Position numbers and translations under genes: made by a program
Part shown: positions 14,191 through 17,694 of the stretch, piece by piece
Numbering within the stretch: position 1 is the first letter of the stretch
How the letters are laid out: each line of letters opens with the position of its first letter
The notes under the pieces: model-generated
What the model was told of the DNA's origin: nothing
Database searches by the model: none
What the model saw: only the letters and a program-made list of their open reading frames with translations
From: a virus
Taxonomy: Duplodnaviria; Caudoviricetes
DNA: 24,576 nucleotides
Virus record (IMG/VR): IMGVR_UViG_3300037797_000033
Span: 1 to 24,576 of that record
Reading direction: 5' to 3' (one strand)

Positions 14191-14948
14191 GTGGCCGCTT
14201 CCAGCTCGGCGAGGCGCTGCTGCCGGTCAAAGGCGTCCTCGTCGAGGAAGATCCCACCCTTCTCGTGGCAGGTCTTGACAGACGTGTCCACATGAACCGG
14301 CACACCGGCACCCGCCGCGCGCACGCAGAACGACAGGTCCTCGGAGAACGTCCGCGGCCTGCCCTTCGCCCCGGTCGGGTGCGTCAACGGCTCGAACCAC
14401 GCATCGCCGTACTTCGCCTGCACCTTCACCAGCGCGTCGCGGTGCAGCAGCAGACACGCCGCCCCGGTAGCGGCGGGCTTGAGGACCTGGTCACGGCCGT
14501 AGTCCAACAGCGGCCGGAACCCGATCTCGTCCCCCAGGTCCAGGTACTCGTACACCGTCGGCGCGACCCGGAACCGCTCGGCGTTGAAGTCGCCGCGCGC
14601 CTGCCGCTTCTGCGCGAAACACAGCCCGCCCATGATTGGCCGGTCGACCGGGTCCGCCGACTTCACCAGGCGGTCAACTGTGTCCGGTCCGTAGCCCATG
14701 TCCGTGTCGATGAACCACAGCCACTCGCCGTCGGTCAGCAGGAAGTCCAGGCAGATTTCGTTGCGGCCGGCCGCGACACCCATCGTGCCGGCAACCTTCC
14801 GCAGCTCCTTGCCATTCTCGCGGATGATCCGCTGGGGGCCGAGCAGGTCGTGGATCAGCAGGTCACGGTAGCTGAGGCCGAAGCAGGCGGACCACTTCCC
14901 GGCGTCGAGGTAGCCGACAACGACAGACCCCTCAACCACCGCCGTCAC
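14187..14948 (-). CDS. Glycosyltransferase, GT-A fold (GT2-like)
   Basis: GRN, WLWFIDTD (DxD), TGAACLLLHR, SEDLSFC.R and H.K motifs. Confidence 0.85.
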   Translation of the reverse strand: MTAVVEGSVVVGYLDAGKWSACFGLSYRDLLIHDLLGPQRIIRENGKELRKVAGTMGVAAGRNEICLDFLLTDGEWLWFIDTDMGYGPDTVDRLVKSADPVDRPIMGGLCFAQKRQARGDFNAERFRVAPTVYEYLDLGDEIGFRPLLDYGRDQVLKPAATGAACLLLHRDALVKVQAKYGDAWFEPLTHPTGAKGRPRTFSEDLSFCVRAAGAGVPVHVDTSVKTCHEKGGIFLDEDAFDRQQRLAELEAAT

Positions 14949-15172
14949 CGGCGGGTCGTCCGCTTCTCACCCGGCCGCGCGGTCGCCTGCTCCACCGGCG
15001 CCTCACGCTCAGCCGCGAGCTCGTCGTCGGTCGCGAACATGTGCGGGTACGCCCTGACCAGCGCGTGATCCTCCGGGTACGCCTCCGTCAGCGACGGCAC
15101 CGTGAACCCGCCCGTGTCCGGATCGCGCACCATGGCCTCTTTGCCCGGCCGAACCCTGTACAGCTTGCCCAT
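14945..15172 (-). CDS. Small capsid-downstream protein
   Basis: GAGGAG SD before ATG 15172; D..V...P..F and EQATARPGE motifs typical of small post-capsid genes. Confidence 0.8.
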   Translation of the reverse strand: MGKLYRVRPGKEAMVRDPDTGGFTVPSLTEAYPEDHALVRAYPHMFATDDELAAEREAPVEQATARPGEKRTTRR

Positions 15173-15176
15173 CTCA

Positions 15177-15233
15177 CTCCTCACGCAGGTGCGCAGGGTG
15201 ACGGCCCGGAGCCCTGCGCGTCTCCGGGCCGTC
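15177..15233 (-). promoter_or_regulatory. Hairpin/pseudoknot RNA leader (may also act as attenuator or terminator)
   Basis: 12-bp perfect stem GACGGCCCGGAG/CTCCGGGCCGTC (15200-15233). Loop GCGCAGGG is complementary to downstream CCCTGCGC and CCTGCG, next to the SD. Confidence 0.7.
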
Positions 15234-15243
15234 GGTACTTGCC

Positions 15244-15618
15244 CTACCTGTCGGACTTGCTCTTCCGGCTCGACCTCGCCGAGCCCAAGTCCGACGCCGG
15301 TGCCGGGTCAGCAGAGAACTCCGTCGTCGCCTCCGGCTCCACCATGGCGGCCTCGCGGTCCTCCTCGGCCCGCTCCTTCGCCTTGTCGTCCCGGTCCTCC
15401 AGGCCGTCCGGAACGTCCGCGTTCTTCGCGTCCGGGCGGTCATCGGCGTCCTCGACCGGCTCCAGGTCACGGTGCGAACCGTCCGAACCCACCGGGCCGA
15501 CAGCCTCGTGGATCACGACCGTCTCACCGTCGACCTCGCGACGCTCGCCGATCTGCTGCTCCAGCGGCACCTTGTCGTCGAAGTCCGGGTCGCCCGACTT
15601 CTTCTTCGCGTACACCAT
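15244..15618 (-). CDS. Acidic, probably disordered protein with its own start, nested in frame in the endonuclease ORF
   Basis: TAGGAGACAGC-ATG at 15618; abrupt return to high GC3; D/E-rich composition. Confidence 0.75.
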   Translation of the reverse strand: MVYAKKKSGDPDFDDKVPLEQQIGERREVDGETVVIHEAVGPVGSDGSHRDLEPVEDADDRPDAKNADVPDGLEDRDDKAKERAEEDREAAMVEPEATTEFSADPAPASDLGSARSSRKSKSDR

Positions 15619-16173
15619 GCTGTCTCCTAGGTAGCGAATGGCCGCAGTGAGCACGGCCGGGTCTTCTCCTGCCATCCCGATCATCAAATTGCAGTAGTGA
15701 CAGAGGATTCCCCGAACACACCGCGCGCACCCATACGAGCCGGGGCAGCAGCCGTGGTCGTGGTCGATGTGCCAGACACCGTGCCCGCCGGGCTCCACGC
15801 GCCTACAGACGGCGCAAGACCCGTCCTGCCGCTCCAGCATCTCCCGGTACGACTCCGGCGTCAGACCGTGCCGAGCAATCGTGAGGTTGCGCCGATACCC
15901 GGGGTTTGTCTTCAGGTACTGCTTGACGTACTCAGCCTGACACGGCTTGCAACTGTTGCTGCGGTCGCCAAATTCAGGCGATGGCTTAACGATCTGACAG
16001 CGCGAACACTTACGACTTGCAGACTGTCGAAACCGTTCGCAACGAAGTTCTCTCTGCCGCTTCCTCTTGCATTCCCTTGAGCAGTTCCGCGCGTTCCCAT
16101 TGGTTGGCAGGAACGTCGTACCACAGTGGGCGCAATCCAAGGGAACCGGGTTGCGGGGCACGCCTCTCGTCAT
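15244..16173 (-). CDS. Endonuclease VII-like (His-Me finger) free-standing homing endonuclease, read through into the acidic ORF
   Basis: CxxC Zn fingers (CAHC/CSREC, CSRC/CKPC), then Q.G.CAVC...IDHDH.CC...C..C.RG.LC..CN; lower GC than flanks. Confidence 0.88.
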   Translation of the reverse strand: MTRGVPRNPVPLDCAHCGTTFLPTNGNARNCSRECKRKRQRELRCERFRQSASRKCSRCQIVKPSPEFGDRSNSCKPCQAEYVKQYLKTNPGYRRNLTIARHGLTPESYREMLERQDGSCAVCRRVEPGGHGVWHIDHDHGCCPGSYGCARCVRGILCHYCNLMIGMAGEDPAVLTAAIRYLGDSMVYAKKKSGDPDFDDKVPLEQQIGERREVDGETVVIHEAVGPVGSDGSHRDLEPVEDADDRPDAKNADVPDGLEDRDDKAKERAEEDREAAMVEPEATTEFSADPAPASDLGSARSSRKSKSDR

Positions 16174-16270
16174 CGTCTCTCTCCAGGTGAGGCGGAGGCC
16201 CGGCGCCTGGAGCGCCGGGACCCCCTTCCCTCGGGGATCAGCCGAGGGCGACTACGACCAGCGTAGCACC
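16174..16270 (-). promoter_or_regulatory. Structured leader of the endonuclease gene: three hairpins, SD-sequestering pseudoknot, extended -10
   Basis: Stems CCCGGCGC/GCGCCGGG (16199-16219), CCCTCGG/CCGAGGG (16228-16248), CTACG/CGTAG; TG-C-TACGCT at 16268-16260. Confidence 0.6.
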
Positions 16271-16284
16271 ACCTATATATCGAC

Positions 16285-17694
16285 CTACGCCGATGTCTTC
16301 TCCTGAAGGAGCCGGAACCCGAGGTCGTTTACGGAATCGCTCCCGGACCTGAAGTGCATGAACCACGCACGCCGGCCATCGGGAAGGTTATTCGAAGTAT
16401 TGAACATATGGGGGATCAGCTCAATACTGGCACTTCCTGGCTTGTCGACAATGATGAAGTTACTAAAATCGCCGAAGACGATCGCATTGTCGTTCGCCGT
16501 GGTCGTCTGCGTGGACGGCGCCTCGTCGGACTCGACGACGGGCCGTCCGAGCAGGGTGCCGGCGGTGCCCATGGTCGCGTCGGTCGTGTAGCTGGCCGAC
16601 AGTGCCGTACCGAGCGCCTTGATGCCGAGCGAGTAGAACGGGTTCATCAGCCACGTCGACCGGCCGCGCCAGCGGACCGGGACCTGCCGGTACACGGAGT
16701 GCAGGTCGGCCAGCGCGATCACGTTCGCCGTGGCCGAGATGATCTCGACGTTGGTGTTGGCGTCGAGGGCGGTGAAGATGCCGGTCGGCGCCGACCCGGA
16801 GCCGGTCGCGTGCGCCACCGCCTCAAGGCGGTCCTTCGCGTCCGCCAGGATCATCAGCACGTCGGAGGTAAGGCCGCTGATGTCCTCCATGGCCTCGATG
16901 CTGGCCTGAACGAGTGCACGCCCGCTGTACAACGGGATCGACACGGGCGCCACCGCCGGCGTGTCGTCACTCACCTCGCTGAGTTCCGAGTCCCAGCTCG
17001 CCGTTGCGCCAGCCGTGGTCACGCCGCGCCACGTGTTCCCGTCCGTGAGCGTGACGACGCGGGAGATGCCGCGAATCACGTTGCTCGTGCCGCTGGACGT
17101 GAGAATCAGCGTCGGGTCGAGGTGCGTCGGCACCAGGTGCCCACCGGCCGTGTTCGTCCCGACCGCCATCGCCGCACGCTTCTCGTCCTCGCTCAGGAAC
17201 GCGGCCCGGCCGGTGACGAGCTTCGAGAACGCCGACAGGTAGTCCGGGTGCGACCGGGCGAGGATGCCGGCGGCCCACGGCGAGTCCGACGCGTGCCGCT
17301 TGACGATCTTCTCGAAGTTGCGCTGCGCGTCGACACCCTCGATGAGGCCTTCGGCGGCGCGGAGGTTGCCGTCGACGAGCTTGCGCCGGATCTCGCCGGT
17401 GGACATGCCGACGCCGCGTGACTGGAGCACCTCGTAGGGGTCGTCCTTGATGATGACGTTGGGTGCGCTGCGGGTGCCGTCGCCCTGCTCGACGTGGGTC
17501 GGGCGGGTGGCGAGGGTGGCGACCTGGGTACGGCGGGCCTCGATCGCCCGCACCTCGCCCTCACGCGTGGACCGTTCGGCGGTCAGGTCGTCCCAGGTCT
17601 TCTGCTGGGCTTCGTCGAGCGGGTTGTCGCCCGCTGCGTCGTGGATGGATCGCAGCTCGACCTCGATGGCCTCAAGCCGCTCCTGTGGTGTCAC
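16285..17694 (-). CDS. Major capsid protein, HK97 fold with N-terminal scaffold (delta) domain
   Basis: Coiled-coil N-terminus, GG.LVP, A.W..E, G.GS..P.GI, WLMN, LLGRPV..S, FGDFS motifs. Confidence 0.95.
   Translation of the reverse strand: MTPQERLEAIEVELRSIHDAAGDNPLDEAQQKTWDDLTAERSTREGEVRAIEARRTQVATLATRPTHVEQGDGTRSAPNVIIKDDPYEVLQSRGVGMSTGEIRRKLVDGNLRAAEGLIEGVDAQRNFEKIVKRHASDSPWAAGILARSHPDYLSAFSKLVTGRAAFLSEDEKRAAMAVGTNTAGGHLVPTHLDPTLILTSSGTSNVIRGISRVVTLTDGNTWRGVTTAGATASWDSELSEVSDDTPAVAPVSIPLYSGRALVQASIEAMEDISGLTSDVLMILADAKDRLEAVAHATGSGSAPTGIFTALDANTNVEIISATANVIALADLHSVYRQVPVRWRGRSTWLMNPFYSLGIKALGTALSASYTTDATMGTAGTLLGRPVVESDEAPSTQTTTANDNAIVFGDFSNFIIVDKPGSASIELIPHMFNTSNNLPDGRRAWFMHFRSGSDSVNDLGFRLLQEKTSA

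Follow-up and report, generated by a model that had tools for sequence, protein, structure and literature searches.

The preQ1-I and SAM-II riboswitches are H-type pseudoknots that mask the Shine–Dalgarno (SD) sequence. At ColIb-P9/IncB rep, according to the available text of PMC4705826, a loop word pairs just upstream of the SD and activates translation; there is one box, a leader peptide ends at it, and an antisense RNA acts as the block. Structures that sequester the ribosome-binding site (RBS), helices as well as hairpins, are established at the genes of the phage homing endonucleases I-TevI, Aeh1 mobE and T4 segB (available sections of PMC3014915), and the same sections describe the T4/T2 gene 32 operator pseudoknot, which nucleates gp32 binding on A+U-rich repeats and lies 67 nt upstream. 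Hairpins of a different use stand between cistrons, malE–malF for example, where they protect mRNA and have no U-tract (PMC5927463, in part); 3' ends that lack U occur in Streptomyces (PMC6742748, in part). The element described here lies between the genes of a phage late operon, and invites comparison with several of these.

The locus

The window, by which we mean the whole stretch of DNA analysed, is an entire virus record of 24.6 kb. Its minus strand reads as a siphovirus-type late operon: terminase, portal, protease, major capsid, a frame that joins an HNH and an acidic gene, a small gene, glycosyltransferase, methyltransferase, tail and lysis. The genes of concern are these:

16285..17694, minus strand: major capsid protein gene, from its Pfam match (PF05065)
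15619..16173, minus strand: endonuclease VII-type HNH gene, inserted behind the capsid gene; it is without a stop and continues in frame into the acidic gene
15244..15618, minus strand: acidic gene, 124 aa, with its own SD and AUG (AUG at 15618)
14945..15172, minus strand: small gene, 75 aa, downstream of copy 1 (AUG 15172–15170)

The fused HNH–acidic frame spans 16173–15244 (minus), and its acidic part keeps its own SD and start codon. Among relatives the acidic gene is a separate gene right behind the capsid gene, and the multi-box element described below then follows the acidic gene. The frame that precedes the acidic gene closes within 4–23 codons in L111, L127 and L139, and is open for 107 codons in L131. 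The acidic protein has a conserved N-terminal motif, is encoded directly behind the capsid in about one-fifth of relatives, and belongs to no family that we could find in Pfam or the ESM Atlas; it might be a high-copy head protein. The small protein has a weak PHROG match to head–tail connectors (E 4e-4), and no Pfam family among its matches.

Other parts of the operon have peculiarities of their own. The portal gene (20818–18401, minus) is interrupted by an insert that resembles an intein and matches Hint and LAGLIDADG, and the tape-measure region (7519–4432, minus) appears as two long frames, 7519–5819 and 5817–4432, possibly one split gene. The glycosyltransferase and methyltransferase genes (14948–13618, minus) sit within the head module. 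A glycosyltransferase gene follows the capsid block in most relatives, and that of the window has no match among deposited phages. Virion glycosylation is known from mycobacteriophages, and by analogy the pair possibly serves the same end here.

A scan of GTDB with a single capsid as query found no locus, and one with a capsid alignment found eight. Because the named genomes with close capsids (three of the eight loci; 61–72% identity) are Actinomycetota, we infer that the host of this phage is an actinobacterium.

Two copies, not quite alike

The first-pass annotation had singled out two related hairpin leaders on the minus strand of this operon. Direct inspection of the sequence finds both in place, and they are the only two minus-strand CCCGG..CCGGG hairpins with a CAGG loop in the window:

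16228..16248, minus strand: 7-bp hairpin just 5' of copy 2, present also, with changed pairs, in the HNH leader of one relative (L437)
16194..16225, minus strand: copy 2 hairpin; stem of 5+7 bp with one bulge; loop word CUCCAGG at 16212–16206
16181..16187, minus strand: single box of copy 2, CCUGGAG, after a 6-nt linker; it contains the SD, GGAG, of the HNH gene (AUG 16173–16171)
15200..15233, minus strand: copy 1 hairpin; 12-bp stem (15233–15222 with 15211–15200) and 10-nt loop (15221–15212) with the word GCGCAGGG
15191..15198, minus strand: box 1 of copy 1, CCCUGCGC, one base past the stem, with 8 Watson–Crick pairs to the loop
15183..15189, minus strand: box 2 of copy 1, CCUGCGU, loop-complementary and abutting the SD
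15182–15177, minus strand: SD, GAGGAG, of the small gene (AUG 15172–15170)

The reported relations to the SDs, contained in the box in copy 2 and abutted by it in copy 1, are as the list gives them. The CCCGG/CCGGG stem is present in both copies as part of something longer (12 bp in copy 1, 7+5 bp in copy 2); as a feature of the family it has to be given up, since the stem sequence varies freely in homologues. A spacing of 10–11 nt to the ACCTG segment fits copy 2, where it lies 10 nt from CCGGG, and misses for copy 1, where the distance is 14 nt. A single loop-complementary segment per copy is likewise correct for copy 2; in copy 1 the second box, CCCUGCGC, had been overlooked.

Copy 1 begins 10 nt past the stop of the HNH–acidic frame. 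Both hairpins are unusually stable for their composition (copy 1: z –3.8, none of 200 shuffles as stable; copy 2: z –3.1, one of 200). In the best simple fold of copy 2 the loop shrinks to 3 nt, and so the pseudoknot must open two apical pairs. The window has no further convincing copy; two other two-box hairpins sit inside coding regions. No terminator-like site occurs in 14900–16500, and no U-tract follows the stem. The first-pass annotation had raised the possibility of an undescribed RNA family; no family of Rfam 15 reaches its gathering threshold in the window, nor again in 15100–16320, where five weak matches (E 0.34–6.9) stay far under threshold.

A family of hairpins with tandem boxes

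Searches with the capsid gave 172 loci, of which 123, the distinct regions behind a complete capsid 3' end, were kept; those dropped were truncated or repeated the first 60 bases of another. With 25 post-acidic regions added, 5 post-capsid regions without a hairpin, and identical loop–tail pairs merged, there are 138 hairpins to consider. A box, in what follows, is a stretch within 30 nt that forms at least six Watson–Crick pairs with the loop. Behind the acidic gene, 24 of 24 hairpins have at least one box and 18 at least two (3.3 and 0.08 with shuffled tails). Behind capsid genes with no acidic gene following, the numbers are 56 and 44 of 88 (shuffled, 10.0 and 0.3), which leaves 32 of the 88 box-less; behind capsid genes with an acidic gene following, they are 4 and 0 of 26 (shuffled, 2.3 and 0.1). 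The same pattern emerges when the loop is ignored at the outset: the reverse complement of the tail's own direct repeat turns up in the loop in 12/14 post-acidic, 43/49 post-capsid and 0/7 acidic-following cases, and in the upstream flank, the control, in 0, 1 and 0. The box-bearing instances that were parsed number 81, 63 with at least two boxes and 18 with one.

Loop and boxes change together. The commonest loop word is GCAGG, and loop and boxes switch jointly to ten others: GCUGG, CCGGG, GCGGG, ACAGG, GACGG, GCGCGG, GGCUGU, GGUAG, GGGCAG and UCAGG. The 11 classes imply 15 changes on a FastTree tree of 61 capsids (a quick IQ-TREE tree was also used), and although capsid trees of mosaic phages overcount changes, 11 classes still need at least ten. 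When tails are exchanged between classes the two-box match is mostly lost—the swap matrix is strongest on its diagonal—and the exceptions are mainly words that remain compatible through G.U pairs or a common core. Covariation of loop and box, a weak argument from the two copies of the window alone, is in the homologues above chance. In a 52-sequence alignment the stem positions are 97.5% paired, and every one of the 13 pairs has changed on both sides; the figure leans high because the alignment was fitted to the structure. Among 56 sequences a single column is invariant, and the stem sequence is fully variable; the tails are C-rich in homologues.

It is conceivable that a protein binds the words as DNA, one of them inverted and two in direct repeat at a spacing of about 10 bp, and that the hairpin is an unrelated pause or stability element. 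The spacing of box 1 and box 2, about 8–12 nt, is near one turn of DNA, and 11 of the distinct box windows with a single mismatch are of neither wobble type. The remaining mismatches speak for RNA: nine are of G.U type and one of A.C type, several of the former from one clade, at similar opportunities (176 and 148), an excess that favours pairing on the mRNA strand. The inverted word, moreover, always lies within the hairpin loop, and 11 word classes would each demand an altered protein specificity. We judge sites in DNA to be very improbable.

A family model (R2), whose training alignment did not contain the window, has copy 1 as its top match there (26 bits, E 0.0016), and copy 1 is, going by its sequence, a typical member of the family, with tandem boxes. 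Of the shared H-type pseudoknot that the first-pass annotation envisaged, the conserved pairing of loop and downstream segment at the SD survives; two equivalent simple pseudoknots do not, for copy 1 has tandem boxes and copy 2 one. Judged by sequence and covariation, the element is a real, uncatalogued cis-acting RNA family of phages that are likely actinobacterial.

Three kinds of neighbouring structure may be recorded here. In L043, L113 and L033, within the first 100 nt past the capsid stop, the loops of post-capsid hairpins that stand before an acidic gene are complementary to the SD region of that gene, at least 30 nt away. In L016, L034, L087, L090, L096 and L170, the capsid stop is separated from the motif by one more hairpin, and the motif is displaced 50–90 nt further downstream. 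And in L051, L074, L077, L100, L111, L127 and L139, long hairpins of lower GC content stand before the genes that were inserted past the capsid gene; they lie in the first 100 nt past the capsid stop, and several have an AUG or SD-like sequence in the stem.

Distribution

The element is found beyond the relatives of the window's capsid. Two scans of IMG/VR that took no account of capsids, covering 18/64 and 24/64 parts, were made; 123 distinct pattern matches came from the first and 108 from the second, and in 15 and 12 of these a hairpin encloses the word. The strongest 10 from the first scan and all 12 from the second, two sets that share some loci, precede the small gene or a glycosyltransferase-like gene; the gene upstream, where it could be read (all but L397 and L415), is a capsid, acidic or inserted HNH gene. 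The remaining 5 hairpin matches of the first scan are weak and occur in other contexts. PF05065 capsids from two further lineages make up five of the upstream genes, one with 30% identity to the window capsid over 178 residues and one without a significant match. The element also precedes genes that are unrelated to one another, one of them confirmed as a group 1 glycosyltransferase, and it remains before the small gene in 6 loci despite insertions of 190–830 nt (HNH-type or other genes). A second model (R1) finds 52 matches in 701 kb, one per locus and all on the capsid strand.

Host chromosomes, searched with R2 in two samples of 151 genomes, returned two loci already known, G001 and G002, and 18 other matches, none of which, when read by eye, has a loop-complementary pair of boxes; the sensitivity of this search is low because only 35 candidates per genome were scored. 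Among named phages with distant capsids, Che9c, ThankyouJordi, Courthouse, phiPsal1, WXIN and Brujita have hairpins at the capsid 3' end with no box pair, prophiGD02-2 and Omega have almost no gap there, and R2 finds no match in any of the 8 deposited phage records inspected. The post-capsid hairpins of two of these mycobacteriophages, Courthouse (L561 2465–2500) and WXIN (L564 2510–2535), have an identical 8-nt loop on different stems.

Position of the boxes, and what they might do

Among the 63 instances with at least two boxes, in 59 the stem begins 3–18 nt past the upstream stop, in 59 box 1 begins 0–5 nt past the stem, and in 59 box 2 begins 8–15 nt past it. Rough geometry, with A-form constants, coaxial stacking assumed and 5 likely chance instances dropped, suggests that box 2 can pair with the loop without any melting of the stem in 60/60, and that box 1 can do so in 59/60 only if 1–6 bp (median 4) are melted. 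By the same rough estimate copy 1 would have to melt about 4 bp for box 1 to pair in cis, and would reach box 2 with the stem intact.

Positions relative to the SD were compared in 77 instances, 4 likely chance ones having been dropped, with starts and SDs picked automatically and some probably wrong. The last box before the SD ends between 9 nt inside the SD and 6 nt before it in 66/77, and overlaps it in 18/77. The spacer between SD and AUG is itself loop-complementary over at least 5 bases in 17/77, against 2/77 and 0/77 in coding windows, a non-neutral control, and the 17 come from about four or five clades; this spacer box follows the word in the GCAGG, GACGG, GGUAG and GGGCAG classes. 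The SDs are mostly strong, and in most two-box copies the box helix would only abut them.

The reading that we prefer, with a probability of about 0.5, is that hairpin and repeats lower the translation of the downstream gene through a predicted loop–box pseudoknot at its RBS. It would start from the GC-rich stem, 12–18 bp and of free sequence, that stands behind the capsid gene, or the acidic gene if present, and whose compensatory pairs have been counted. The 6–10-nt loop word, complementary to one to four co-changing boxes, would pair with them on the mRNA strand, as the G.U-type variants suggest. The helix of loop and box 2 would lie against the SD—some lineages have the SD under a box, or the spacer taken up by an additional one—so that the 30S subunit would have to melt the helix in order to bind. 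The weakest step is the next: tandem boxes would offer the loop several registers, such that it might re-pair when displaced, and so set the degree of repression. The downstream proteins would then be made in fewer copies than the capsid. We favour such a step-down because the boxes precede only certain genes, remain at the RBS of such a gene when others are inserted, and in several lineages extend into the SD or spacer. Some facts sit awkwardly with it. The strong SDs are mostly only abutted, which alone need not mean repression; box 1 is conserved as well as box 2 yet lies outside the RBS, and is poorly explained; and about a third of post-capsid hairpins (the 32 of 88 above) are box-less, while the similarly placed pseudoknot of ColIb-P9 activates.

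Box 1 is better accounted for by the main rival, in which the element shields a 3' end. After termination or cleavage further downstream, the loop would capture the single-stranded tail, first by box 2 and then, after trimming, by box 1, leaving 3'–5' exonucleases without a toehold, so that the mRNA of the capsid block would outlast the other parts of the operon. In those 59 of 63 instances box 1 starts in the few nucleotides past the stem, the usual place for 3' ends left by trimming. Box 1 also keeps its Watson–Crick pairing where box 2 wobbles or decays (the L011 clade, L162, L087 and L096), the element is always behind the capsid block, and it lacks a U-tract, as do protective intercistronic hairpins and 3' ends of Streptomyces (in the available text of PMC5927463 and PMC6742748, respectively). 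Against this stand the hairpins directly behind the capsid gene when an acidic gene follows, 0/26 with paired boxes, and the anti-SD loops, the SD-overlapping boxes and the boxes in the SD–AUG spacer, all of which point to the RBS; the estimated net gain from pairing box 1 is small besides, with a median of about –6 kcal/mol before pseudoknot loop penalties. As the main purpose of the element, shielding seems to us unlikely; it and repression are compatible with each other.

The conserved reach of box 1 beyond an intact stem (59/60 on the above estimate) has another possible meaning, namely that the loop pairs with box 1 of a second RNA, in a head-to-tail dimer, or that short capsid transcripts with their 3' end at the hairpin repress read-through transcripts in trans. 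An antiparallel dimer would escape the limit on reach, and box 1 is covarying as well as conserved. Box 2, however, fits an intramolecular pseudoknot without melting in every case (60/60), and this should win at low concentration, which makes pairing between molecules decidedly improbable.

Could the pseudoknot activate, as at ColIb-P9 rep? Pairing with the loop might free the SD from C-rich boxes, or a terminating ribosome might melt the base of the stem, whereupon the loop would take box 1 and the RBS would open. The stem does start close to the upstream stop (3–18 nt in 59/63), there is the precedent itself (PMC4705826, in part), and masking the last box reduces the predicted cost of opening the SD–AUG region from 6.8 to 5.5 kcal/mol on average, and by more than 1.5 in 34/77. 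But among those 34 are boxes that overlap the SD, which the loop would then hide, and box-less hairpins begin equally near the stop. We set aside melting of the stem base by the ribosome as the trigger, for the correlation with stop distance ran in the wrong direction: the copies that need most melting sit further from the stop (Spearman +0.33, n 56, related sequences). Activation or coupling of this sort is improbable, and repression at the RBS remains the reading that we adopt below.

Copy 2 and the inserted nuclease

Copy 2 scores poorly with R2 (12.6 bits, E 0.53). The HNH gene has one close relative that we found (L437, 57%), likewise inserted behind a capsid gene, and the leader there has the same two-hairpin layout with altered pairs. 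The loop in L437 is UCUAGG and the box CCUAGGAGG; together they differ from copy 2 by a switch from C–G to U–A, which is compensatory. The SD of the nuclease lies in the predicted helix in both, on a count of one relative and one compensatory change. One-box forms that cover the SD occur before the small gene as well (L017, L018, L075, L082, L094 and L494), and a scan with the pattern of copy 2 gave 140 matches, 4 with a hairpin and 1, L494, convincing. We infer, with one homologue as evidence, that the nuclease carries copy 2 along with it as a one-box variant, and copy 2 likely keeps the inserted enzyme low. The post-capsid site is, to all appearances, a hot spot for HNH insertion with varied folds that would hide the RBS.

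A TANNNT-like hexamer at 16265–16260, found by eye, lies 5' of both hairpins of the leader, so that a late promoter there would not omit the 5' arm, the omission by which masking of this kind would be relieved. A sigma-70-like site at 16442–16469, on the opposite strand, is a pattern match only.

A bolder picture joins the two copies. The element could be a multi-register RNA switch. Its loop would move from one to another of the identical boxes in the tandem (stem base, SD edge, spacer), or would use box 1 for head-to-tail pairing with a second mRNA, and the ratio of capsid to accessory proteins would be set in this way with no protein or ligand taking part; the module would move between unrelated capsid lineages, and would have been captured by a homing endonuclease to silence itself. 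Taken as a whole this is possible but doubtful.

Comparison with known systems

We found no description of the motif in a search that lacked most subscription papers, the available text of PMC5737381 and PMC10690425 included; the 8,495 unnamed candidates of Fremin 2023 may overlap with it. Pseudoknots between a loop and an RBS are known. What we did not find described is a single loop with a row of conserved targets that evolve together with it, one of which seems to be beyond its reach in the intact fold, and it is this arrangement that would set the element apart. The element bears on how phages reduce expression partway through a single late operon, in hosts whose transcripts often end without a U-tract, and it could be used as a tunable translation part for actinobacteria. 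Because it is short (60–70 nt), with a free stem sequence and natural sets of compensatory words, it can be tested directly in reporters.

The riboswitches preQ1-I and SAM-II resemble it in that their loop pairs with sequence on its 3' side, across or next to the SD, a pairing that here is predicted from complementarity and covariation. The differences are that the phage element has no Rfam match, a stem of 12–18 bp and free sequence, tandem boxes, and phage genes downstream; nor has it fixed nucleotides with which to bind a ligand, given 11 classes of loop word and one invariant column among 56 sequences. The protective hairpin of malE–malF is alike in being stable, without a U-tract, and placed behind a gene needed in large amounts; the available text of PMC5927463 describes no pairing of loop and tail there. 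The gene 32 operator, too, is a pseudoknot in phage mRNA upstream of an RBS, with repeats between pseudoknot and start, although in the sections available (PMC3014915) those repeats are not described as complementary to the loop.

Copy 2 resembles the leaders of I-TevI, mobE and segB, as these same sections present them, since it would hide the SD of a free-standing HNH gene in a phage operon. It would do so with a loop-to-SD pseudoknot rather than with the helices and hairpins described for those genes, and the same design precedes genes that encode no nuclease.

The two-box form has a likeness in ColIb-P9, where the loop word is complementary to a stretch just 5' of the SD, as it is in the 66 of 77 instances here that fall within –9 to +6 nt. 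In the phages, no leader reading frame ends at the box; the upstream stop lies 5' of the hairpin, 3–18 nt away in 59 of 63. And where ColIb-P9, in the available text of PMC4705826, has one box, the phage element sets its boxes in tandem, often over the SD or the spacer, and in the midst of a late operon.
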